A stretch of DNA of 60,422 bases, the filler included, from Globobulimina sp. (lineage: Eukaryota): NCBI GenBank assembly GCA_003354225.1. It is 14 parts of 14 records of this genome, joined end to end, with 100 filler letters (N's around TTAATTAATTAA, not from the genome) between each part and the next. Parts side by side here need not be neighbours in the genome. Positions count along the whole stretch, not along the records: positions 43,246 to 47,465 come from PIVH01001452.1; 13 more parts are not named here. One strand, written 5' to 3'. Within the stretch, counting starts at the first letter, position 1. Every line of letters starts with the position of its first letter. The notes beneath the pieces are model-generated. The model had not been told where the DNA came from and searched no databases. It was given only the letters and a program-made list of their open reading frames with translations. Both the position numbers and the translations under genes were made by a program. Shown here one piece after another: positions 3,663 to 55,809 of the stretch.

Positions 3663-4079
3663 ATTCTAGAATTGTATGTTTCCATAAATAGTCGTTCATT
3701 TCCTGGCCTTTTGTGTATACCATAATTTCAAATAGCACTATAGAATTATAATATAACGCAACATACATCATACAATATAATTTTGCATGATATCTTTGCA
3801 TGTTATTTGAAATTATGGTATACACAAAAAGCAGGAAATTAATGAACGATTATTTATGGAAAGGTTCGATCTAGATATAAAAAAGAAATCTAACGAGTGG
3901 AGGTTTATGACCAAACTCATAACATATAGTTAGTTAGACAACATCAGAGCGAAAATAGCATCTACATCACCTCATCATAAACAACCAGATAGAATAACAG
4001 AACTGGAGTACCGGGTTTCGAACCAACATCATCATCTTCTTCTTCCCATCTTCTTTACCTTTCTCAGAAACATAACAAA

Positions 4080-17502: not shown

Positions 17503-18894
17503 TTATATAGTATTCATTTTTCTAATAACAACCTCCAATACTTCAGTTGTATCTTCTTCTTTATAATCTTTCATAACTCCAGTTCTAACAATCTCGCCAT
17601 TCTCGTCAACTTTTACCTCACGATTACCCCATTTTCTATTATCTAATGAAAATATAGCCCATAACTTTAATAAAGCACCAAAATATGTTGATAAAATGAA
17701 AATAGGAATATATACGATAAATCTATAATTGTATTCAAAACTTGGTCTAAAATAAGTAAAATAAGGTAACATTTTGATCGTTCTTAATACAAAAATATAT
17801 AATAGAGTAATATAAAACAGTTCAAGACTACCAGAAAATAAAGCAATTCCTAATCCAATAAACATGGTAAAAGGTGTTATAAATCTATCAACCATTACAA
17901 TTGCTAAAAATGGATATTTGTACCAGACATTTCTTTCTACACATATTAACTTAAAATCACTTCGGATTGTATTTCTTCCCCATCTTAATAATTGGTAAAA
18001 TAATACTGGTGGATCTTCAAATCTTGTAGAAACATAACAATTACTATTAATTTGATGATACATACAATAGTCTTTTGAATTAATACATAAACGAGTTAAA
18101 AATTTATCATCACCTGATAATTGTTGTTTACCCATAAATTTTTCATTTAAGAAATTTTCTACAAAATCACCTTCATCAAGTAAACTTTTTCTCCAAGCCA
18201 TAGTTCTTCCAGCAACACAAGGAGCACCACCACCAAAAAGTGTTGTTGCTTTAATTTCTAAATATCTTTGAAATAACCTCATATCCATTAAAACTTCATA
18301 AACATTATGACGTTTACCTTTTGACCTACATATTTGTCCTGGTCCAACACCACCAATATTTCTTTTCTTATCATTAAATGGAATTATTAAATTTTCCAAC
18401 ATAGTATCACAGTGCCAAACATCATCATCAATGAACATTATAATATCTGTAGTAGTATTTAAGTATCCAGTTGCTAATGCTCTTCTTTTACCAGGTCTAT
18501 GTTCTGGAATAATTTTAATTACGGGAATATCTAAATCCTTATTTTCTTCTAATACTTCATTCTTTATTGCTAAAACTTCATTTTTACAAGTAATGTCTGG
18601 AACTAAAATAATTTCTTTTGGTTTATTTTTAATCCAAGATACTAAACATATTTTAAAATCTTCTTCTGGCATATAAATTGGTATTATATAAGTTACATCT
18701 TCTTTTGTAAAATTATTATTATTATCATCAAGAATATGTTTAGTTTTATATGGTTTATAAAAAAGACTTGGTAATAATCTTAAAAAAAAGTATACTAATA
18801 TTCTGAAAGTTCCTAATGCTAATGGAAATATAATAAAAATCCCTGCCTCTTTGATGTATGTAAGTGCTGTTTCTAATAATAAAATAGTATCCAT
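17503..18894 (-). CDS. Processive GT2 glycosyltransferase (hyaluronan synthase/NodC/Cps1-like polysaccharide synthase)
   Basis: GKRRAL, FIDDD, SGDDKFLT and QLLRW motifs; N- and C-terminal TM helices; intronless and very AT-rich; likely start MDTILL. Confidence 0.88.
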   Translation of the reverse strand: MDTILLLETALTYIKEAGIFIIFPLALGTFRILVYFFLRLLPSLFYKPYKTKHILDDNNNNFTKEDVTYIIPIYMPEEDFKICLVSWIKNKPKEIILVPDITCKNEVLAIKNEVLEENKDLDIPVIKIIPEHRPGKRRALATGYLNTTTDIIMFIDDDVWHCDTMLENLIIPFNDKKRNIGGVGPGQICRSKGKRHNVYEVLMDMRLFQRYLEIKATTLFGGGAPCVAGRTMAWRKSLLDEGDFVENFLNEKFMGKQQLSGDDKFLTRLCINSKDYCMYHQINSNCYVSTRFEDPPVLFYQLLRWGRNTIRSDFKLICVERNVWYKYPFLAIVMVDRFITPFTMFIGLGIALFSGSLELFYITLLYIFVLRTIKMLPYFTYFRPSFEYNYRFIVYIPIFILSTYFGALLKLWAIFSLDNRKWGNREVKVDENGEIVRTGVMKDYKEEDTTEVLEVVIRKMNTI

Positions 18895-18960
18895 ATATAT
18901 ATATATTATAATATTCAAAATCATTTTTAATATTATAATTTTTTATTTTTATTTATTTAA

Positions 18961-19920
18961 TTATTTTTTTAAATCACTAAAAGTCATTAAATTTGGACTT
19001 TCATCCATTTTAATTTGTATTTCTTTATTTTCTGTAATCCATTTATTTACTTCTTCTGTTCCATTCAAAAAATCTGTAATACGAGCATCTACTTTATATT
19101 CAACAGCCATGTTAATTAATTCAGGACAATCTTTTGGTAAGCAAACACCACCATAAGGAGCTCCGACTCTAATACCATATTGTGGATTAAGGAATGATTC
19201 AGCAGTACAAGAAACATTATTTAAAACGTGTTGAGGACAAATATTAAAATCATGTTTTTTATTTATATTATTTATTAATCCATAAATAGAATTCGCAAAT
19301 GAAATTCTTAAACCATTCGCATAATTATGAATACATTTATGTATTTCAGCTTCTTCTAAACTCATAATTCTTAAATGTTTTTCATTATTATTAACAAATT
19401 TCAATAACATATTACTCATTCTTTTTTTTACGTCAGTGTCTTCTTTTTTATAACCGAATAAAACTTTCCAAGGGTGTAAAGCATCTTGTTCCGCAGTAAC
19501 TGCTCTTAAAAACTCGGGTTGAAATGCGATATTAAACTTTTTATCTGTGTATTTTTGTAAAAGTTTTTCATATTCTCTTGTTAATCCTGGGTAAACAGTA
19601 CTTCTCATTACTACAATTATTTCTTTTTTTGAAATTTCAATTAATTTTGCGACGGTATTAATTGTGCTCCAAACATAATCCATTGATAAACGTTTCTTCT
19701 CTTTATTTAATGGAGTAGGAACTGAAATTAAAATAATACTAATATCAACTAAATCATTTAGATTATCATTTATATGCCTACATTCAATTCCTTCACTATT
19801 TACATTTTTAATAATTTCTGGTATAACATCTAAAGCAATTACTGGGAATCCGTGATATTTATATCCTTTGATATTTGCTTTACCAACAACACCTGTTCCG
19901 ATTTGTAAGATATGTTCCAT
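18961..19920 (-). CDS. ugd: UDP-glucose/GDP-mannose 6-dehydrogenase family, short form without the C-terminal domain
   Basis: IGTGVVG, SVPTP, RSTVYPG, PEFLR and YGGVCLPKD (catalytic Cys). Confidence 0.88.
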   Translation of the reverse strand: MEHILQIGTGVVGKANIKGYKYHGFPVIALDVIPEIIKNVNSEGIECRHINDNLNDLVDISIILISVPTPLNKEKKRLSMDYVWSTINTVAKLIEISKKEIIVVMRSTVYPGLTREYEKLLQKYTDKKFNIAFQPEFLRAVTAEQDALHPWKVLFGYKKEDTDVKKRMSNMLLKFVNNNEKHLRIMSLEEAEIHKCIHNYANGLRISFANSIYGLINNINKKHDFNICPQHVLNNVSCTAESFLNPQYGIRVGAPYGGVCLPKDCPELINMAVEYKVDARITDFLNGTEEVNKWITENKEIQIKMDESPNLMTFSDLKK

Positions 19921-19954
19921 TGTTTTATATATAATGCATATATAAAAAATTTAA

Positions 19955-20177
19955 CTTAATTAAATTTAATTCATTTGATAAATGGAATGATTTTGTGTAT
20001 ATATAAAAAAAATTTAACTTAATTAAATTTAATTCATTTGATAAATGGAATGATTTTGTGTATATATATATATATTAAACGATCTATATTGTTATAATAC
20101 TTAATTTAATTTAATTCATTTGATAAATAGAATGATTTGTGTATATATATATTAAACGATCTATATTGTTATAATAC
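19955..20177. repeat. Three imperfect tandem copies of a ~50-bp intergenic unit; one duplication includes the stop codon of the upstream gene
   Basis: CTTAATTAAATTTAATTCATTTGATAAATGGAATGATTTTGTGTATATATA-like units start at 19955, 20018 and 20100; TATATTAAACGATCTATATTGTTATAATAC occurs at 20071 and 20148. Confidence 0.9.
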
Positions 20178-21529
20178 AAGGAGGTTGATTCGTATCACAA
20201 CTAATTCCAGATTTAATAATATTTCCACCACAACAACCATCACTACCACCTGGTAATAAACCACAATCTGTTCCTCCACATCGTTTATTTCCATTAACAT
20301 CAACACAAGTTGATAAACAACATTTATTCCAACTTTTAATTCCATTAATACAATTGGGGTCACCAATGATAGGTGATTGTGTAGGATAATACGTAGGAGT
20401 TTGATATATAGTAGGTTGTAATGTAGGTTGTAATGTAGGTTCTAATGTAGGTTCTAATATTGTAGGGGGTATTGTAGGTTCTAATGTAGGAGATAATGTA
20501 GGAATTGTCTCAGATAATGGTAAACTTAATATACATTTTTCTTTATTTATAATTTCATAATAATCTTTAGAAATATAATTATATTCACATTTCGGTGATA
20601 AGGAATGATATTGATCTGTATCTGTATATATTCTAAACTTATCTAAATATAATTTATTTTTTCCATTATAATAATCTCCATTTTCTATAGTAAGATTATG
20701 AACACCTGGGTGTAATGATAAAACATCAACATAATATGTAGAATAAACGATGGTTCCAACATCATATATCTGTTCACCATTATAAATTGTTTCTTTAATA
20801 CCATCTATATATACTGAAAAATCAAGACTGTGTTCATTATAAATAATCATTTCAATTGAAAAATGTCCTAATTTTTTTGTTATAAATTGTGATGATATTG
20901 AATCAAATGAGTATGACAATCTTAAATAACCATAACTTGTACTTGACGCAAGTTCTGTTCTTTTAATATCTATATTTTCGGTTATTGTATTCTCTATAAT
21001 ATAATTTTCTTCAAATTGCCACCAACCTGTCCAATCTAATACGTTATAATTATCTATTAAATTAACTGAATCATAATACCACATATGTTGTTTATAATCA
21101 TCATCATATTTTATTGTTTGTGTTCTTACATCTGAACCGAATTCTTCTGAATGTTTATTTATAGCTCTTCCATATTGAAAATATTCTTTTACAATTGATA
21201 GTGTATCTATATTATAATTACCATATGGATACGCAAATGTTTTGACAACACAACCAGTTATAGTTGATTCTAATACTTCTTTTGCTCCTATAATTTCATC
21301 ATATTGTTCATCATAAGTTAATGTTGTTAAATCTACGTGAGTTTTTGTATGAGAACCAAGTTCGTGCCCTTCGTCGTATAGATATTGGATTTCTTCCCAA
21401 TTCATATTATAAACTAATGATCCAACCCAATCAGTATTTATATACCAAGTCCCTTTAATGCCATATTTTTCAAGATATGGTAAAATAAAATCAAATTGTG
21501 ATTGTATACTATCATCTATTGTTATTACA
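20161..21529 (-). CDS. CE4/NodB polysaccharide deacetylase with beta-rich middle region, PT linker and Cys-rich C-terminal module; 5'-partial
   Basis: Frame stays open to the contig end and gives ITIDD; also HELGSHTKTH and FAYPYG; (EPTL/QPTL)n linker. Confidence 0.88.
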
Positions 21530-22346
21530 NNNNNNNNNNNNNNNNNNNNNNNNNNNNNNNNNNNNNNNNNNNNTTAATTAATTAANNNNNNNNNNNNNNN
21601 NNNNNNNNNNNNNNNNNNNNNNNNNNNNNATTGAGGCCATTCAAACAAAAAATTATTGACGATGTTGATTTTTTTTTTGTTTGAAGCTCCTTAATTGTGT
21701 TTTGTTATATTATTCTGTTGTTTGTTTTGTTTGTTTTTATTATTTTGTGTTGAATTTTTTTAAATATTTGCATGACCTTTTGCTGGGTTGTGGTGTGGGT
21801 TTTTGTTAGTGCGAGGATAATATAAAGATGCTTTGATTATTCAGCAAATAATCTGATTATTCAGCTAATAAGTGAAATTCTAAACTTTTACCGTCTGAGA
21901 ATTTGAACGTCAGAATCAGACTCAAAGTTATTTTTCAAACACAAATCTGGACTGCTACTCGCTCAAACTAAACAAAATGATTGATTGCTACCTCACTTGA
22001 TAGAAAACTTAGATCATGAACGATAGAAAACTTAGATCTGAAGATTCTAAATCTGAGATTTGAGATTCTGAATAAAATATACTTACTTACTTACTTACTT
22101 ACATGCGTTCTTGTTTTTGCTCACTTTTTTTATTTATTTACTTATTCGCTCCTTTATCTATTCATCTTATTTGCTCTAGAAACCGCTCAAGTGTATCACG
22201 CCTCCAATTGGTGATACTCTGTGATTTTTATATAGACACATTTATTGCTGTTATTGCACTCTCTTTAAACCTTCATATTATTCACAACCAATTAATTATA
22301 TTAAATTTGCTTTTATATTTTATTCATTTTAAATATTTTGCATAAA

Positions 22347-31516: not shown

Positions 31517-32617
31517 TTAGGCGTTAAGATTTTGCAATATTTGTAAAATCAATTGTTTTGTATCTTCATTTGGATTGACTTTCTGTAAATTCCTGATCTG
31601 ACTATGTAATAATTCCTGGTTAGATTCTAAATCATCAATACGTTTTTCCTTTTCTTCTAGCTCTGTGATTTCTTTTTGTTGTTTTTCAATCAGTAATCTC
31701 TGGCGTTCTGTAGGATCTACAGTAAGCTCAGTAATTGACTTTACAAATTCTGTAAAACATTCCTCCCTGGTTGGTTGAAGATAAACACCATCAAGGCCCC
31801 TTTTGTGAGCCATTAATTTTTCTGCAATATTGGAATTAATGTCATTGTCAATTTTCAAAATCGTATTGAATCTTTTCCTAAATCCATAGAATAATGCCTT
31901 GTCAAATCTGTGGCCTACCTTAGTTCTTACAATACCAGAATTTTCTACTACTGTTTCCATTAATTTTCTAACAGCTCTATATGGAATCGGTTTTCCTTTT
32001 GATATGAATAATGGTGAGTCATTTGTTAGAAATTCGCCATTTTCTTTTCTATCTTTGATATAGTCATCAAATGCCTCTACACATTCAGGAGTCCAAAAGG
32101 TCCAATATTCCTCTTTAGATCCTTTGTAGATTAGAACAGCTTTGCAGCCATGTTGCATATCTACAATATCACCCAATGTCAGTATTGGATCATGTAAGGC
32201 ATTAGGCCTGCCACCAGTTGATACAAAGAGATGGATCAAAAATTTTGTCTTAAGGTTGGTAGTGGATTTTAACATTTTTAGGATTTCTTCAGTAGTGTAT
32301 GGCTTGTTTCCCCCTGCTTTTTTGTTGTTAGCTGGTAGCATACGCCTGATAATCTTCTTTGGATATAGAATCTCATTCATATCCAGGAATAGCTCTATGG
32401 CTGAAAGATAGCTGTTACAACTAGGATAAGTCAAATGATTAATTGATTGCACGTATTTTGCGAGTAAATCCTTGATTTCTTCATAAGTCATTTTCTTAAA
32501 CTCATTGTATTCTGTTACACCTGAAAATTCTCTAAATTTTTCAAGAGCTCGGGTATAGTTTATTTTAGTGGCATCTGTCTTTATTGCAGCTAGAAAGTTA
32601 TCATAACAAGTTTCCAT
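31517..32617 (-). CDS. int: Tyrosine recombinase/integrase with C-terminal coiled coil
   Basis: STGGRPNAL (R), YKGSK (K), YGFRKRF (HxxR with H to Y), LMAH...LDGVY (H, Y); N-terminal SAM-like core-binding region. Confidence 0.9.
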   Translation of the reverse strand: METCYDNFLAAIKTDATKINYTRALEKFREFSGVTEYNEFKKMTYEEIKDLLAKYVQSINHLTYPSCNSYLSAIELFLDMNEILYPKKIIRRMLPANNKKAGGNKPYTTEEILKMLKSTTNLKTKFLIHLFVSTGGRPNALHDPILTLGDIVDMQHGCKAVLIYKGSKEEYWTFWTPECVEAFDDYIKDRKENGEFLTNDSPLFISKGKPIPYRAVRKLMETVVENSGIVRTKVGHRFDKALFYGFRKRFNTILKIDNDINSNIAEKLMAHKRGLDGVYLQPTREECFTEFVKSITELTVDPTERQRLLIEKQQKEITELEEKEKRIDDLESNQELLHSQIRNLQKVNPNEDTKQLILQILQNLNA

Positions 32618-32644
32618 GGTATTCTATTATTTTACTTACTATTA

Positions 32645-42947: not shown

Positions 42948-43245
42948 TATGACATAAGTGTGACTTGTTTTGTTCGTTTACAATTAAGGTATTATTCAGT
43001 AGGTAATCTAAATTAGTGTATATAATAAGTATCTTTTTGCTGATCACATAATGGGCTGTTGTTTGGACGGTAACAGTCATGGTGTAAACTGGGGGAAAGT
43101 ATGCAGATGATATCGATAATAAATCAAATGATTCGTTACAACCTTNNNNNNNNNNNNNNNNNNNNNNNNNNNNNNNNNNNNNNNNNNNNTTAATTAATTA
43201 ANNNNNNNNNNNNNNNNNNNNNNNNNNNNNNNNNNNNNNNNNNNN

Positions 43246-45854
43246 TTCTTTTTTATCTTTCTTGCCACCACCCGATGCGTTTTGTTTACTGCTTAATTGT
43301 TTGGTTTGTTTGGCATCCAATGAGGTCATAGTCGCAGACATTACGCGCGAGGATAAACCAAACATTCCTTGCGATCTCTCTCGGAACTTCTGGTCCATCA
43401 TATCCATCACATGTAAGCGCAAATCATTCTCAATTGCTGTACATAAAGGATTTATAATCTCCGCATTCAACATTACTAAAATATCTTCTTTGTACACTTG
43501 GAATATTCGATTCGAATCTGCTTCGTGTTTGTTGGATTTCAACATAGGGACAACGTCATTTAAGTAGGCAAATATGCTCGACAGCCGGTATGCTTGCGTC
43601 GGATTGTCGTAGATATCTCGCAAGATCAGCGGGATAAAATCAATGGACCAATAAAAAAATGAAGTATCCGTAGTACGGCAGAGATATTTTTGCCACGAAC
43701 TGACCACATCTAATTTCCATAGTCTATAGCGTACCTCATCAATATCTTGATCGCTCATCATTCCTTTCAAAGTGGCCACCGATGACGCTACATTTATAAC
43801 CACCACACGCGATAATGTCGGAGCAGTGTTCAATAATTCGACACAAAGCGTTAACGCAGCTAAACAATCTAATTTAGCAGAAGTGGGACGCGGTTCAGAA
43901 TCAATTCTCTTTCGTAACGGTTCAAAGATATGCTGCAAACTAAAAGCAATCACAGTTAACATATACGACACGTCGGCCGATAACCGTTTGGATCGCCGAT
44001 GAAAAGCGTCTTCAATCGATTTCAATAACTCTGCCAATGTAGTCAGTGAGCGTAGATTGGATTTCTTGAAATTTATTCCCAAATCTAAATGTAGCCATAA
44101 CGTGGTAGTCAGTAAGTTATGTATTTGCGTGGCCAAAATCAAGCCATCAATCAATAAACGCGTTTGAAATTTAAGCGTGGTTTGAATATCACGAATTTTT
44201 GATTTTATTTCCGCATCCCATTTAATTAGCCATTGACACATTTTCATGTACAAAGTTTGCACGGTTGCGTTGAATTTTTTGTCTAAGTTTAATAAGTATA
44301 TACGTCGGCTAGTATCAATTTTGTGATAGGGCGGATCTAAGGTTTTGCCCGAATAGGGAATATGTTCACGCATAAAATCAGCCAAATACCAGACTGCGCG
44401 ACCGGTTAAATGGACTAAGGGTATTTCGTGCTGTACGCTCCAGACCGATTTATAAAAAGTCTTGTCCTGCGCTGCAGAGTAAGTGAATATTTTATTGGTT
44501 AAGCCATACAAACTGAATAAATCCACCACTGAGTGTCGATGATGAATCTCTTTGCCTTTTAACTCAGATTTTAATCGGCGTTGAATATATTTTAAATATC
44601 GATCAATCTCTTCAAATAATGCACGATTAGCAGACACCACACGCATTTGTTGAATCATTGCCTTGCTCATTTTTAATGCTTCTTCCTTGACTTGATTCTC
44701 TTGTAATATTTGTTCGTATTGATGGGATAAATGGGAAGGCACTTTACTAAAAACGCCAAATTTCTGCGTGATGCAATTTGCATACATCTTACTGTTTAAT
44801 ATTACGTCTTCTAACTGCATTATTTGGTGTTGAAAATCATTTAGGTCGTCTGCATTAAATCCCATACTGTATATTATATATATAATATAATATGTATTAT
44901 TCATATATTATGCGATTATGCGTTCATACCTATCAGGGGTAGTCCTCATATATCCAATCATTTTTTTATAATTTTCCCAGCCATCCTTTAATTCCTCATT
45001 TTCCCTGACAATAATATCTAGTGTCACCAATATAGTGAGTGTTTGTGATAAGCGATCTAATAAATAGTCCATACTCACATTCTTATAGGTTGATATATAT
45101 AATTTCTGTTTTGGGTGATATAAATATGCCAACTGTTCTATTGTGTTCTTTACGACGGCATTCACTCTCAACAGGAAATTACATAATTCCTGTAAAAATG
45201 GTAAAAACCTTGCTATTTGCATCTCCATTGTATTGTCATTATCCATGTTGTCGGTATTACCATTGTTATCTATGTCTGTGTCTGTGTCTGTGGATATAGC
45301 TCCATTTGCATGCGTATCACCGTTGCCGTAGGCATCCGTTCGTTCCTTTTCATCGTTTGTTTGTGTGGATGTATCATTTGGTATTATACCAAACATATTT
45401 AGTGGATGATAATATTTGCTTCTTGCAATAACTTGTAATTGTATCATTTCTTGGCATAATGCACTAAAGACAGTGGTTATTTTATTAAATACAGGATTAT
45501 CTGTTCTGTCTTCCACTAAAAATACTGGATTTAATACGTTTTCATATGGTGCTACATCTAATGATAAGAAGTCGTCGCGTGAGTCCCATGTGTCTGTCAT
45601 GTTGCGTTCACTGAATTTCTCTTCAAGTTGGTGCAAATTGGAGCAATGTTCCTCTATAAATGATTCCATTCGGTTCAATAGATCATCGCTTGGATTTTCT
45701 ATGTAATTGTTTAGTTTTTTATTTAGACAAGAAAATGTATTATATATTTGTTTCAACCTTTAAGATCTCCTCCAAAAAAGTCATTCAATTTTTGTTGGCT
45801 TTGATCTACTGGAAGAAAATTGGACGGTGGATCGCCTGGCGCTTCTGCTGCCAT
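43246..45854 (-). CDS. WASHC4: WASH complex subunit 4 (SWIP/KIAA1033), 3'-partial; introns 45699-45757 and 44867-44929
   Basis: FNKITTVFSALCQE, QIARFLPFLQEL, LVTLDII, PLCTAIENDLRLH; GT-AG splices give a continuous frame from ATG 45854. Confidence 0.88.
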
Positions 45855-45882
45855 GGTTCAAACAATAATAGTAAATAGTTTT

Positions 45883-45890
45883 AAAAAAAA
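45883..45890 (-). terminator. RNA polymerase III terminator (T8)
   Basis: First run of four or more T downstream of the tRNA-like unit, 15 nt after the discriminator. Confidence 0.7.
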
Positions 45891-45904
45891 TCATCTGCCA
45901 GTTA

Positions 45905-46172
45905 TGCCTCGGGAAGGATTCGAACCTTCATCAATCAGGATTGTGGTGACCAATAAGTGGCCGGATTGATTACAAGTTGTAATTCAAGTGTTTCAAGAAA
46001 TTATGCAGGCTGTATTCTCAAGAGAGATTTCCAGTATCTGTAGGTGCTAAATGAGTTAACACACTCAGATCTTGATGCTTTCACACCAACTCCTGCCAGG
46101 TAAGTTAAAGTGTTTTGGGTGCAATACAAAGATTGCAGACTGATGCTCTATCCAATATTGAGCTACCGAGAC
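45905..46172 (-). tRNA. tRNA-like gene with a ~192-nt insertion in the anticodon loop; nominal anticodon GCA but body resembles elongator tRNA-Met
   Basis: Acceptor GTCTCGG/CCGAGGC-A; D arm GCTC/GAGC; anticodon stem TCAG/CTGA; T arm GAAGG-TTCGAAT-CCTTC. Confidence 0.85.
45966..46106 (-). ncRNA. RNU1: U1 spliceosomal snRNA (divergent), nested inside the tRNA-like gene
   Basis: 5' AACTTACCTG; helix H GCAGG/CCTGC closes three stem-loops; Sm site ATAATTTCTTG; 3' stem-loop TTGAATTACA-ACT-TGTAATCAA. Confidence 0.85.
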
Positions 46173-46398
46173 GACATACTGTTTGCTCTTTGCTCTTGAC
46201 AACACACATAAACAGCTCAAATTATGTATGATGGTAATTATGGGATAAAAAAATCAAAATCCTAAAAAACGTTTTCTTTAAAAAGTCATTTTGCAGTTTT
46301 TAAACTTACTTAATTCCTAAGTTCCTAAAGTATCAAAAAACTGTCAGGAATTCATAAAAAACTACACCTACTTATTGAAAAACGAATTACCATTCCAG

Positions 46399-47436
46399 AT
46401 GATCAGACGAAGACCTCTTATGGCAGCTGCTGTGATCGGTGGAGCGTATGTGTTTTATAAATTACATCAAAAAAATATGACTATGCACTGGCAACACGCA
46501 GGCGGAGACCTGTTATGGCCGCAGCAGTTATTGGTGGAGGCAGAAGACGCAGAAGAAGGCGTGTAATTGCAACAGCAGGTGAGTGAGGCATCTATTATAC
46601 GAATTAGCTGTGAGATTTCAAACGTTAACACTTTAACAAACAGCAATAGCATCTTCAGTCGCACGATCTCGAGCAGAAGAACAACATCGACAACAGCAAC
46701 AACAACAACAAATGCAACAACAACAGTATGAAATTGAAAGACTTAAAGCCGAACAAAGAGCAAAAGAGAAAGCTGAGGCAAACCAACCAAGAATAATCTA
46801 TGTTCAAGCGCCACCCGTCGGACATACTGCGCAATGTGTTCAAAAACTAGCTGGTGTTAAGTAAAGTCACTACTATAAATTAATAATAAATTAATTACGA
46901 ATTACTTATAGAAATGATTTGAATTAATTACAAATTAATTAGGAATTAATTTATAAGTATTAAACCATTAAATTCTCTTTAATATATAGCATCAACAAAT
47001 TGAATATGTACCAAGCAATCAAGCACCACAAGTGCAGCAAGTGCAGGCTGTGCAGCAAGCAACACAACTACAGCAAGTGCAGCAAGCGCAGCAAGTTCAG
47101 CAAGTTCAGCAAGCGCAGCAAGTGCAGGCTGTACAGCAAATACAACCAATTGAACCAAAACCAAAAATAGTGTATGTACAGCAAGCAGCACCACCACCAC
47201 AAGTCGTGCCTGTGATGCAGGCACAGGCACAGCAGGCTGCAGCTGGTCAAGCACTAAGTACAGAGCAAAAGGATTATGTGCAACCAGAAGTAAAACCTAA
47301 GATAGTGTATATAGAAAAACAGGTGGAAAAAATAGTGTATGTGGATAGACCGCAGGAAACAGAAGCATTAATTGAAAAGCAAGAGGAAGCGCCTCCTCCT
47401 CCTCAAGAGAGCGATGGTTGTTGTATTGTGTTATAG
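46399..47436 (+). CDS. Four-exon Q/V/A-rich protein with KIVY repeats and C-terminal CCIVL prenylation signal
   Basis: GT-AG introns (about 46446-46501, 46579-46643, 46817-46989) link MIRRRPLMAAAVIGG to the QQVQ repeats and GCCIVL*. Confidence 0.6.
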
Positions 47437-47565
47437 TTATTTTATAAATCAAATCATTATTCTATNNNNNNNNNNNNNNNNNNNNNNNNNNNNNNNNNNN
47501 NNNNNNNNNTTAATTAATTAANNNNNNNNNNNNNNNNNNNNNNNNNNNNNNNNNNNNNNNNNNNN

Positions 47566-50720: not shown

Positions 50721-52184
50721 TGAATATGATATGATATTATATTAAGTTTATATACATAATTATTTTGATGAAAGGTTTGTCATTTTTTTTGCAGAATATA
50801 GCAAATTAGATATCATAGATATTTACTAAACAAAACATCCTTCGCCTGTTTGGGCGTCCAATGTATTGAATAAAACAAATGATAGTATGGATAAACATGT
50901 GATTTGAGAACCCATGTATGTCTGCTTTGTGTTTTGATTGTTTTTGAGTGGGAAGTAAAGGTTGCACTGAAACAAATGATATTTGTGAAAAATAGCCATT
51001 GAAATAATACATTAAAAACAAAAATGCCCAGAATCGAATTAAGTTTATTCTGTCATTACAACAACGCGGTGCTTTATTCTTTGTAATGTATAAATATCCA
51101 ACAAACATTGAATGAATAGCAACAAATACACCTCTTCCAATTAAATATTCCCGACCAAGAAATACATCCACTTTGAAGAATCGTCCATTTTTGTACGTGA
51201 ACAAAATAAATGACAACCAATGCACAGGAAATGTATCACCACAACAAATACCATTACAAATGGTAGTACCCCATCAATACCAACATGTCATGTGCATGCA
51301 AATCAAACTCAGCTTCTTCGTCTGTTCAGTCCGGCAGTAGGGATGACCACACTGACAGTTTCGTCATTTTTATGATAATAAACTCAATTTTGATAATTGA
51401 CATTCTTTGCATGTAAACAAATTTTGATGGCGGTAAACAATAAGTATAAATCCGGTGTTATTGCGCTAATAATAATATGTGATGATAGCTTAAAGAAAGC
51501 AGCTTATGAACATGATTTGGGTTCAAATCCCAATCATCACTTTTATTATTTTTATTTTTATTTTATTCTAAAGCAGTTGATAAAAACAACAAAAATTCAA
51601 ATGTCACTTTTTTTTTTTTATCTTCATTTAAATTTTACAAATTATTATTCGTGTTTCGTTCCATCCAGGATACATTTCAAGAATTTCTTCATCCGTATCA
51701 AAATAATTTGAATTAAATAATAATGGTTCCTCAATATTTGATGGCGGATTGGCATCACGAACATGTAAACATTGATTATATTCATNNNNNNNNNNNNNNN
51801 NNNNNNNNNNNNNNNNNNNNNNNNNNNNNTTAATTAATTAANNNNNNNNNNNNNNNNNNNNNNNNNNNNNNNNNNNNNNNNNNNNGGTTTAAAAGCAATC
51901 TCAAAAACAACAGGCGATTTTAGACAAAAAAGCAAAAAAAAAGCAAACAGAAATCACAGATATAGCCATTGGACGTCGTGTGGAGCATATTGGGATTGAT
52001 TAAAATTGGATTTAAAATTAAAAAAATCAACATTCACCTCAAAACCATTGCAATCACCATTAATAATCCTAACAATAAAATCAAAACGTATATTCATTAT
52101 TATATTTCCATTTTAGTGTTACTCTTAAAGTTTTTGATTTTTATAATCAAAACTTCAAGCTTTTTCTTTTCGCCTTTACAATAA

Positions 52185-53733: not shown

Positions 53734-55809
53734 CAATCAAACCATGTTCGTTTGTCAAGATCCGGATTATATAAATCACGGACTCCTCCTCCTCAATCTC
53801 GTAATAAATACAAGGAATACAGAAAAATGAAGCGCGTGTTTCCTAAATCTGTATTTAACAAAACCGAGTATCAAACAATTCCGTACATTGTAAAGGTTAT
53901 AGCTCACAAAGGCCGTGGATACACATTAGATAATCCATGCATTGGTACTTGGGCTAAAAACCTAAAACGCTCAAAAACAAGTTTCAAAGCGAGATTAACC
54001 AAATCATTTAACACAATTTATGATAATAAGAGAAACGCTTTGGATGAACTAAAAAATGCATATAATTTTTTAGACATCAAACTAAAATCACATATTTTTA
54101 ACAAAAAAGCCAAATGGTTTTTTAATAAGAATTATTATGTGATTCGTCAAAATACCACCATCGCAGTACGCGGCTTATTATTTCAGTTAAAAAAGAATAA
54201 ATTTACATTGATTGAATCAGATAAAAAGATGGGAAGTATTTATATCGATATCTGTGTGGTCGATGACGACGTATTAAAGTTTTTAAACAGTAAACAATTT
54301 GTACCAATTTATGCAACGGAACAAGCAATATCTAAACAAATAGCTATTTCGTCAAAATCGCTCATAAATGATCATTATAATCATTTTAAGCATAAATGGA
54401 ACAATGACAGAGTTTTTAATGTCTGGCGCAAAATGTATGACAGTGACAAAGTATTAAATTTGCCGAAAATCCGTCCTATGATGAAACTGCATAAACCGGG
54501 CTGGCGTTTTATTTTTAATCCCGGCAATTTTTATACATTATTTATGTCGTTCGAAGCAGGAAATATTTGCGAAGATATTTTATTACTATTTCAAGAAAAA
54601 AACAATTTGCATATTGTCCTAAATAACTCATTTGAACTCATGAGCTGTTACAAGAAAATCAATAATCAAAATGATAAATTTTTGAATACCGATCGATTTT
54701 TCTATGATTCTGATGTTGTATCAATGTACGATTCAATGATTATTGATCAATGCATTGAAATATTGAATTATATACAAACAAAATTAGATTATAATCAATT
54801 TAAATTTGATTTTTTGATTGACACATTATTCTATTTTAGAGACAATACATACATTAAATACAAAGATTGGATCAGAAAAATGGTGATAGGTTTAGGAACT
54901 GGGAATTCTCATTCCGGTCCTTTAGCAAATCTATGTTTATACGGATATGAAGTTAAGAATTTAAGCGTGTTTTTGCACGCAATCAACGCCGAAACATTTT
55001 GTGATATTACTTTACGTAAACGGTACATCGATGATAAAAAAACTATTATCGATGTCGATGATGATCAATTTGCAGACGACGTTGTAAAATTAGATTATTT
55101 AAACAAAATATCCATTGCTTTAAATGACATATATCCCATTAACTTAGTATTAAAAACCAAATTTGCAAAACGTGCTATTTATTTAGATACATATTCAATT
55201 ATTTGCCATCAAACAAATCGAATCGTATCATTTATGCATGAAAAGCCATTAAATTTGCATATTAATCTACATTTTCATTCAAATAATCCATTTAATCAAA
55301 AAGAAAGTATTTTTTACTCATTTTTATTCAGAAGTATCTGTTTAAATGATAGCGTCGTAAAACATAAAGGTTTTACGAAAAAATTGATAAAAAGAATGAA
55401 AAATAGAGATTTTCCACCTGCCGTTATCAGGAAAATACTCTCAAATCGAAAATTGCCTCAATATATAAATAGAGATAAATACTTAGAAAAATTAGAAAAG
55501 AATAGACTGGAAAAGTATTATCGCAAATTATTAAAAGTATACAATGAAAATATTTGGGGCCAAGAATCTAAGTTTATTAACAACGAAAAATTAGAATATA
55601 TCAACAATTTATACATTGATAATGAAGAAATAGATGACGTAAAAACGGTATATTTTAAAAAAGTATACCAACAGTTATTTGATGACGACAATCGATACAG
55701 AGAAATATTAAAACAATTTAAAGAATATTTGCCATCAGATTTCGCAGAAAATATTAAGTTATCTATCTGCAATCAAACAGGAGATAAATTAATGAGATAT
55801 TTAAACTAA
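53734..55809 (+). CDS. Penelope-like reverse transcriptase
   Basis: ESDKKMG, MKLHKPG, DVVSMYD (A), GLGTGNSHSGPLANL (B), RYIDD (C), YLD, and EKPLN...LHFHSNNP...KESI...R (PLE thumb). Confidence 0.9.
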   Translation, partial: QSNHVRLSRSGLYKSRTPPPQSRNKYKEYRKMKRVFPKSVFNKTEYQTIPYIVKVIAHKGRGYTLDNPCIGTWAKNLKRSKTSFKARLTKSFNTIYDNKRNALDELKNAYNFLDIKLKSHIFNKKAKWFFNKNYYVIRQNTTIAVRGLLFQLKKNKFTLIESDKKMGSIYIDICVVDDDVLKFLNSKQFVPIYATEQAISKQIAISSKSLINDHYNHFKHKWNNDRVFNVWRKMYDSDKVLNLPKIRPMMKLHKPGWRFIFNPGNFYTLFMSFEAGNICEDILLLFQEKNNLHIVLNNSFELMSCYKKINNQNDKFLNTDRFFYDSDVVSMYDSMIIDQCIEILNYIQTKLDYNQFKFDFLIDTLFYFRDNTYIKYKDWIRKMVIGLGTGNSHSGPLANLCLYGYEVKNLSVFLHAINAETFCDITLRKRYIDDKKTIIDVDDDQFADDVVKLDYLNKISIALNDIYPINLVLKTKFAKRAIYLDTYSIICHQTNRIVSFMHEKPLNLHINLHFHSNNPFNQKESIFYSFLFRSICLNDSVVKHKGFTKKLIKRMKNRDFPPAVIRKILSNRKLPQYINRDKYLEKLEKNRLEKYYRKLLKVYNENIWGQESKFINNEKLEYINNLYIDNEEIDDVKTVYFKKVYQQLFDDDNRYREILKQFKEYLPSDFAENIKLSICNQTGDKLMRYLN

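Follow-up and report, generated by a model that had tools for sequence, protein, structure and literature searches.

We analyzed a 60,422-nucleotide (nt) stretch of DNA, filler included, joined from 14 parts of the Globobulimina sp. genome assembly GCA_003354225.1 and referred to below as the window. Within the part derived from PIVH01001452.1 (positions 43,246 to 47,465), the minus strand carries a 268-nt unit in which the two halves of a transfer RNA (tRNA)-shaped gene enclose a sequence related to the spliceosomal U1 small nuclear RNA (snRNA). A first-pass annotation of the locus, made from the DNA letters, had listed its component parts, and all were confirmed on the minus strand where that annotation had placed them. 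The features of the locus and its downstream neighbor are collected in Table 1.

Table 1. Positions and strands of the elements that make up the locus, with the gene that follows it
Feature	Position	Strand	Basis or remark
tRNA-shaped 5' half	46172-46133	-	ARAGORN with introns; acceptor strand GUCUCGG, D arm, anticodon stem strand
A box	~46165-46152	-	Within tRNA 5' half (D arm)
Anticodon GCA	46136-46134	-	A37 = 46133
Whole insert	46132-45941	-	192 nt
Insert leader, 26 nt	46107-46132	-	AUUGCA (46125-46120) pairs with anticodon-loop UGCAAU (46137-46132)
U1 5' arm ACUUACCUG, 5' splice-site recognition sequence; DNA ACTTACCTG	46105-46097	-	Sequence
U1 four-way junction	46005-46096	-	Helix H closing three hairpins; minimum free energy fold, RF00003 alignment
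Helix H, GCAGG/CCTGC	46096-46092 with 46009-46005	-	82 nt between strands
Sm-type site AUAAUUUCUUG	46004-45994	-	Sequence
Terminal hairpin (stem-loop 4)	45987-45966	-	Fold
Insert trailer, 25 nt	45941-45965	-	Small hairpin GGCCA/UGGUC (45962-45948), then ACCACAA up to 3' border
tRNA-shaped 3' half	45940-45905	-	Anticodon stem strand, variable loop, T arm, acceptor strand; discriminator A at 45905
B box GGTTCGAATCC	45926-45916	-	B-box scan; T arm of tRNA 3' half
3' trailer of 14 nt, then T8 (45890-45883)	45883-45904	-	RNA polymerase III-type terminator, by sequence
WASH complex subunit 4/7 homologue	43198-45854	-	Downstream neighbor

A U1-related insert in the anticodon loop of a tRNA-shaped gene

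When introns were allowed, ARAGORN called a single tRNA in the window, a tRNA-Cys(GCA) at c[45905,46172], whose 76 nt are interrupted in the anticodon loop by an insert of 192 nt. This bears out the first-pass proposal that the two halves form a complete 76-nt cloverleaf once about 192 nt are removed; by default, without introns, the same program found no tRNA gene in the 60,422 nt. ARAGORN placed the insert at position 38/39, and the canonical intron position, 37/38, yields the same product. The two placements are equally valid because a 5-nt direct repeat, CAATC, stands at both insert borders (46135-46131 and 45943-45939, minus strand). The gene has the parts expected of a canonical intron-containing tRNA gene: all four cloverleaf arms (acceptor, D, anticodon and T), both internal boxes (A and B) and a T-run. 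The insert occupies the canonical intron position, as had been proposed.

Compared with Rfam covariance models, the insert aligned with U1 from end to end: model positions 1-166 of RF00003 matched 45963-46107 (minus strand) at 23.3 bits, with an E-value of 0.0012 when 901 nt were compared with all 4,227 families and of 0.078 when the whole window was scanned. The unconstrained minimum free energy (MFE) fold of 46107-45963 reproduces the U1 layout: the 5' arm and the Sm site are free, helix H closes three hairpins, and a terminal hairpin comes last. The MFE z-score of this part alone is -2.6. Folded as a whole, the 268-nt unit forms the acceptor, D and T arms together with the U1 module (z = -3.3; 0 of 200 shuffles fold equally well). 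Within this full-length RNA, the mean probability of being unpaired is 0.90 for the 5' arm ACUUACCUG and 0.82 for the Sm site, the pairs of helix H have probabilities of 0.96-0.97, and those joining the leader AUUGCA to the anticodon-loop UGCAAU have probabilities of 0.78-0.99; the ACCACAA that precedes the 3' border is single-stranded. The arm sequence ACTTACCTG occurs once in the window, where 0.20 copies are expected by chance, and the combined motif consisting of ACTTACCTGGCAGG, 82 nt and CCTGCATAATTT was found once in the window and in 0 of 100 shuffles. We regard the homology of the insert to U1 as established, in line with its first-pass identification as a U1-type RNA.

No second copy was found in the window, where BLAST of the unit returned nothing beyond chance matches of 15 nt or less. 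A scan of metagenome DNA for a tRNA-Cys anticodon arm followed by a gap and ACTTACCTG yielded 10 loci, all of which proved on inspection to be chance matches in unrelated DNA, and in scans of viral (4 loci) and prokaryotic (65 loci) genomes with a shorter pattern, none of the 69 loci was followed by a B box or the closing motif. One argument advanced in the first-pass annotation did not hold up: the 268-nt unit indeed lacks any run of four T, but so do 7,146 of the 55,384 minus-strand 268-nt windows (13%) and 22% of shuffles of the unit, and the property is not significant.

The unit is found as RNA in an unspliced form

We compared four sequencing runs, X1, X2, X3 and X5, as assembled contigs; X4, X6 and X7, whose shares were small, and X8 and X9 form no part of the evidence. 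Independent contigs in all four confirmed the unit, and the chimeric junctions that might have explained the arrangement away were not borne out. X1 reads through the intron of the neighboring gene and through all flanks and thus behaves as DNA. Two of its contigs run from the unit into the flanks, with depths over the unit of 5.3 and 5.4 that equal the flank depth of the same contigs, indicating a single-copy locus rather than a repeat or short interspersed element (SINE). A tRNA-derived SINE or retrocopy was rejected on this single-copy depth, on the splitting of the tRNA halves around the insert, on the lack of an A-rich or simple-repeat tail, and on the lack of a second copy in the window. 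In X1, both places flanking the T8 run also read T (differences at 45882 and 45891), which makes the run T10.

X2 is labelled as another organism and is at least 99% identical to the locus over its three matched pieces. We take it to be an RNA library because a 59-nt GT-AG intron has been removed from the downstream mRNA, where X2 skips 59 nt with GT..AG on the gene strand. One of its pieces, 149 nt long (46162-46014), begins in the tRNA 5' half, spans the leader and reaches into U1. The depth of X2 is 0 over 46189-46374 and 45848-45878; with X2 also lacking coverage of 45879-46002 and X3 and X5 lacking coverage of the flanks, this is a weak hint at most. X3 and X5 are marine-sediment metatranscriptomes from different studies. 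The X3 contig (contig 7; 289 nt) covers 46155-45910 and X5 contig 11 (243 nt) covers 46150-45911; both lie wholly within the unit and cross both tRNA/insert borders. Their matches stop 5-22 nt from the tRNA ends, where X1 continues, which is a weak hint of RNA ends. The RNA libraries hold an unspliced tRNA-U1 chimera of ~270 nt, bounded near the tRNA ends.

All 3 RNA contigs that contain both the U1 body and tRNA sequence are unspliced, contigs 7 and 11 across both borders and contig 5 across the 5' border. Neither a joint skipping the 192 nt (the ligated tRNA) nor a back-joint (a circle) was reported among the contigs of the four runs, from which minor forms can drop out. Mature tRNAs are, moreover, poorly captured, so the missing ligated tRNA proves little. 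The abundance of the two forms can be bounded from the assembly procedure: according to the Logan description (bioRxiv 10.1101/2024.07.30.605881), 31-mers seen once are dropped and a mean word abundance is given for each contig. For the X3 contig this mean is 2.8, and ~57 of its 259 words hold exon letters, each of them seen at least 2 times; by arithmetic from this floor of 2, insert-only words average at most ~3.0, that is, at most ~1.5 times the exon-containing words. With so small an excess of insert-only words, the unspliced chimera accounts for most of the sequenced molecules in the X3 library.

Relatives conserve the tRNA halves, the 5' arm and the Sm site

The versions of the unit in the two marine-sediment metatranscriptomes are 93-97% identical to the locus. 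The X3 contig differs by 16 substitutions and one 1-nt gap, and 15 nt of its terminal hairpin are replaced by 56; X5 contig 11 differs by 7 substitutions and 3 gaps, with two small insertions and one substitution in the terminal hairpin. A further variant, X5 contig 12, keeps the tRNA 5' half and the leader and continues into a diverged U1 start that still reads ACTTACCTG.

These differences are unevenly distributed. Across X2, X3 and X5 contig 11, the covered parts of the tRNA halves (54 nt) show 0 differences; the 5' half is unchanged in X3 and X5 over the covered 46133-46155, and the 3' half in X3 and X5 contig 11 over 45910-45940. The 5' arm ACUUACCUG is unchanged in X2, X3 and X5, and the Sm site shows no differences in X3 or X5. 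The sole change in helix H and the Sm site is a G>A substitution (RNA sense) at 46096 in X2 and X3, which turns the first pair of helix H into A.C. In the leader, the sole change is A>G at 46120, where the pair is kept as G-U, and in the insert trailer one change, at 45952, is common to X3 and X5. The remaining differences cluster in hairpins 2-3 and the terminal hairpin, with 10 of the 13 listed X3 substitutions and the 1-nt deletion falling within hairpins 2-3 (46068-46021).

Two side observations concern these sequences. X2 is otherwise at least 99% identical to the locus, and the A at 46096 in X2 and X3 could be a strain difference, an allele or an edit. Three other X5 contigs, 8, 9 and 10 (250, 151 and 272 nt), match the locus over the tRNA 3' half only (within 45905-45947); the match lies at their ends, and their upstream sequences differ. 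Contig 9 has a loose end resembling the trailer hairpin of the locus and probably represents a U1 unit that has diverged further; in contigs 8 and 10, different RNAs may be set in a tRNA frame of this kind.

The tRNA portion resembles a frame more than a decoding tRNA

The core of the tRNA is canonical, with U8, A14, G18, G19, a TTCGAAT loop, and acceptor, D and T stems of 7, 4 and 5 base pairs (bp). U73 is the main identity element by which cysteinyl-tRNA synthetase (CysRS) recognizes tRNA-Cys, and all tRNA-Cys known to us carry it. The discriminator here is instead the A at 45905. The anticodon stem contains a U31.C39 mismatch, and an alternative 7-bp register, which removes the variable loop, is favored over the canonical 4-bp stem: in the spliced form, the alternative register is predicted at -26.6 kcal/mol versus -21.9 kcal/mol for the canonical one, and in the precursor the canonical stem has pair probabilities of ~0.01. 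Taken together, A73, the mismatch and the competing register make this RNA a doubtful decoder, and the tRNA part better fits a frame for transcription and end processing than a working tRNA-Cys with an intron.

A possible function for the chimera

We give an even chance to the reading that the locus is a genuine gene, expressed and conserved, whose tRNA-Cys shape houses a U1-type spliceosomal RNA in the anticodon loop (37/38), with the chimera as its main form and maybe as a working U1. In such a gene, the A and B boxes would recruit RNA polymerase III (Pol III), and the T8 run would end the transcript. RNase P and RNase Z would act on the acceptor/T-arm module to make the two ends, both of which would be locked into a helix, so that the tRNA frame would do the jobs for which a stand-alone U1 gene depends on its Pol II promoter, cap and 3' box. 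The unspliced chimera of ~270 nt would be the main stable form. Because the ACUUACCUG arm and the Sm site are predicted to be single-stranded within it, the chimera may itself be a working U1 that assembles with Sm and U1 proteins and acts in splicing. Release of the insert by the tRNA splicing endonuclease in some molecules is possible. The insert probably arose when a U1-bearing fragment was inserted into an intronless tRNA-Cys copy, given that the CAATC at both borders could be a target-site duplication or a microhomology join.

A stronger version of this proposal is possible, though we would not call it probable. In it, the working U1 is a cap-less Pol III product that remains fused to the tRNA body as a natural 'tRNA scaffold', and the machinery of tRNA biogenesis (TFIIIC, RNase P and RNase Z, and possibly also CCA addition and exportin-t) has replaced the route through Pol II, SNAPc, Integrator, the cap and PHAX. 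Other snRNAs of the lineage may be framed likewise, as X5 contigs 8 and 10 hint.

Several points weigh against a functional chimera. As for the U1 identity, the covariance search suggested in the first-pass annotation gave a full-length match but one well below the gathering score (23.3 versus 69.5 bits), and Rfam reports nothing in the window at gathering scores. Hairpins 1-2 show no clear loop for U1-70K or U1A; AUCAAGA and UUAGCAC resemble the loop motifs bound by these proteins, but both are paired in the MFE fold, and UUAGCAC is altered in X3 and X5. We mapped 22 changes onto the predicted pairs, using the difference table of the 3 runs and not full sequences: 4 are unpaired in the MFE fold, one pair is changed on both sides (C-G to A-U, counted as 2), 4 one-sided changes keep their pair, and the other 12 of the 22 break MFE pairs. 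As for the form of the RNA, the evidence consists of assembled contigs of 3 runs, which carry neither read ends nor strand information. Library preparation often loses RNAs shorter than 200 nt, and an excised U1 of 145-190 nt would then go unseen; the X5 contig, with a mean abundance of 5.5, gives the loose bound of at most ~3.3-fold for the excess of insert-only words. The eukaryotic splicing endonuclease normally acts on a canonical tRNA body, which makes excision the default expectation, and we know of no precedent for a working U1 with 65 extra nt before the 5' arm. That Pol III makes the RNA, that its ends are processed, that it binds Sm proteins and that it acts in splicing are inferences, and the taxon assignment rests on one protein (see below).

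Alternative explanations

The explanation nearest to the first-pass proposal, in which U1 is made in a tRNA insert and freed by tRNA-processing enzymes, treats the chimera as a precursor: an endonuclease would cut the 192-nt intron out of a pre-tRNA, and the freed RNA, either linear and trimmed or closed into a circle by an RtcB-type ligase, would be the working U1. The presence of the unit in RNA libraries and in relatives agrees with the first half of that proposal, whereas release was not seen, and we judge this explanation somewhat unlikely. Much of the geometry suits it, with the insert at the canonical 37/38 position of a cloverleaf that has all its arms, an anticodon paired with the leader as in eukaryotic pre-tRNAs, and a 3' border in a single-stranded stretch. 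An anticodon-intron (A-I) pair is the rule for 3' cleavage by the eukaryotic endonuclease, but no pairing was seen between position 32 and the insert base at -3, and hence no A-I pair. The endonuclease measures from the mature domain and accepts foreign inserts. The reporter work on tRNA intronic circular RNAs (tricRNAs; PMC4536317, PMC6614914) fits this. Size selection of the libraries could hide a product of ~150-190 nt; yet neither the skip-192 joint nor the back-joint was reported in the 4 runs, two metatranscriptome contigs are unbroken across both borders where a co-abundant spliced or circular form would be expected to break the assembly, and the excess of insert-only words in X3 is at most ~1.5-fold. 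After excision, moreover, nothing would set the 5' end at ACUUACCUG, and A73 and the U.C mismatch suggest that the ligated exons would make no useful tRNA-Cys.

It is also conceivable, but to our mind quite improbable, that the locus is a functionless relic, in which a U1 fragment that landed in a spare tRNA-Cys copy is transcribed through the surviving A and B boxes while the real U1 lies elsewhere. The CAATC repeat, with its likeness to a target-site duplication or microhomology join, and the low U1 score both fit such a relic, as do the many changes in the relatives that break predicted pairs. The changes are concentrated in hairpins 2-4, however, and with the exception of 46096, in the first pair of helix H, none disrupts the tRNA halves, the leader helix, the 5' arm or the Sm site. 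The arrangement is kept in at least 3 distinguishable environmental variants (X3 contig 7 and X5 contigs 11 and 12), the T-run is kept or lengthened in X1, and the RNA was plentiful enough to be assembled from a sediment metatranscriptome of 28 million letters, all of which argue for more than a relic. That the gene is an ordinary tRNA-Cys whose long U1-like intron serves the tRNA, as a processing or regulatory element or a decoy for U1 proteins, would account for the cloverleaf, boxes and T-run and for the tRNA halves being the most conserved part, but is highly improbable in view of the discriminator A in place of the U73 needed by CysRS, the U31.C39 mismatch, the lack of any ligated tRNA among the contigs, and a full U1 layout with exposed Sm site and 5' arm that a mere spacer would not need.

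Organism and genomic context

Within the window, the NEMF/Rqc2 homologue is 67% identical to a sequence from the foraminifer Nonionella stella; the next match is at 51%, and the best named non-foraminiferal match is at 41% or less. We tentatively assign the organism to the foraminifera or a close rhizarian relative because of the best match of this one protein and the occurrence of RNA relatives in marine-sediment metatranscriptomes. Trypanosomatids lack canonical RPB1 heptads. Alterations of the RPB1 C-terminal domain are suspected in foraminifera, according to a part of PMC3079666, and passages of PMC4950102 state that in trypanosomatids all snRNAs are made by Pol III. The parallel between the two groups is a lead, not evidence.

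The WASH-complex subunit 4/7 homologue has its ATG (45854) 28 nt beyond the end of the T8 run, and its 59-nt GT-AG intron, removed in the X2 contig, is at 45757-45699. The 5' splice site of this intron, AAG/GUUGAA, is a partial match to the U1 arm. A second tRNA-like gene, 63 nt long (51479-51541, plus strand), scored 42.7 bits with the Rfam tRNA model against a gathering score of 29, in an E-value-mode scan only, and was missed by ARAGORN both with and without introns. Its acceptor, D and T arms are intact, its anticodon arm has shrunk to ~10 unpaired nt, and T-runs follow directly; this could be a further tRNA-shaped frame, or else a promoter element that resembles a tRNA. A B-box-like sequence, GGTTCGAAACC at 4024 (minus strand), was set aside, having no surrounding tRNA.

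Elsewhere in the window, adjoining genes for a family-2 glycosyltransferase, a UDP-glucose/GDP-mannose dehydrogenase and a polysaccharide deacetylase with a Cys-rich tail occupy 17503-21573 (minus strand; GC content 25-28%) and form a polysaccharide-synthesis cluster, possibly of foreign origin. A tyrosine recombinase open reading frame (ORF) at 31517-32623 (minus strand; Phage_integrase domain, E = 1.2e-10) and a 691-residue ORF at 53734-55809 (plus strand), which has no Pfam match, are each probably part of a mobile element. The window also contains 26 runs of N between 4229 and 56204, arranged as pairs of 44 N that stand 12 nt apart and recur every ~4,326 nt; they represent regular masking, not assembly gaps, and interrupt several ORFs.

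Comparison with known systems

U1 is among the most conserved eukaryotic RNAs, and outside trypanosomatids it comes from a stand-alone Pol II gene and carries a cap that drives export, Sm assembly and re-import. If our proposal is true, the locus would mean that spliceosomal snRNAs have left the Pol II pathway a second time, independently, and here for the first time with the tRNA included in the snRNA transcript. Were the chimera the working form, an uncapped U1 would recognize 5' splice sites through an internal arm, and the making of an Sm-class ribonucleoprotein (RNP) without cap-dependent export would become testable. Standard annotation misses both parts of the gene, the U1 because Rfam is applied at gathering scores and the tRNA because tRNA finders are run without long introns, and similar genes may lie hidden in the genomes of other protists.

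As the first-pass annotation had supposed, the arrangement appears to be unreported: in the literature searched, which excluded subscription journals and supplements, we found no description of a spliceosomal snRNA inside a tRNA gene or intron, and passages of three rhizarian genome papers (PMC10245619, PMC3079666 and PMC13746701) contain nothing on a tRNA-framed U1. Among the closest known systems, none has a spliceosomal snRNA inside a tRNA.

Canonical U1 genes are stand-alone Pol II units with an upstream proximal sequence element (PSE) and a 3' box, and their product bears a trimethylguanosine cap. The insert shares with their RNA the succession of ACUUACCUG and GCAGG, a helix H with three hairpins, a CCUGC-AUAAUUU Sm region and a terminal hairpin. 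It differs in lying between tRNA halves with A and B boxes and a T-run, in having a 5' arm that is internal in the transcript seen, in scoring below gathering, and in having hairpins 1-2 without recognizable protein-binding loops.

The U1 of trypanosomatids is much reduced, unlike the full four-way junction predicted here. Trypanosomatid snRNA genes are transcribed by Pol III with the aid of the A and B boxes of a neighboring tRNA or tRNA-like gene (PMC4950102). The present gene would resemble them in that a spliceosomal snRNA relies on tRNA-type internal boxes and Pol III. In trypanosomatids, however, the boxes belong to a tRNA or tRNA-like gene that is a unit of its own upstream and contributes nothing to the snRNA transcript, whereas here the A box lies 5' and the B box 3' of U1 in one unit.

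The housing of a functional small RNA in the intron of a tRNA gene has a parallel in the archaeal tRNA-Trp intron, which contains a box C/D RNA, a methylation guide with its own tRNA as target, and has a bulge-helix-bulge (BHB) splice motif. The present case differs in its eukaryotic host and in the spliceosomal nature of the RNA, with no BHB evident and splicing not seen. Metazoan tricRNAs likewise are stable RNAs derived from a tRNA intron, and foreign modules placed in such an intron are expressed by Pol III (PMC4536317, PMC6614914). TricRNAs are excised circles with no known snRNA identity, whereas here the unspliced form was found and no back-joint was reported.

Physical links between tRNA genes and small nuclear or nucleolar RNA sequences are known from other settings; at this locus, the CAATC repeat makes an origin by insertion plausible as well. 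In the dicistronic tRNA-snoRNA genes of plants, a small nucleolar RNA (snoRNA) follows the tRNA and is released by RNase Z, and SINEU is a snRNA-related mobile element. Dada transposons target both tRNA and U1 genes (PMC3706591). The present locus differs from Dada elements, which span several kilobases and encode a transposase, and from multicopy SINEs in its single-copy depth and its lack of a transposase and a tail.

A further likeness is to an artificial system, the engineered 'tRNA scaffold' reportedly described by Ponchon and Dardel in 2007, in which a recombinant RNA is placed in the anticodon arm. There, as would be the case here, an RNA replaces the anticodon loop, the tRNA body processes and protects it, and the chimera is the stable product. 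The scaffold is a laboratory design; if the chimera is the working form, the tRNA-U1 gene would be its natural counterpart, carrying an essential cellular RNA.

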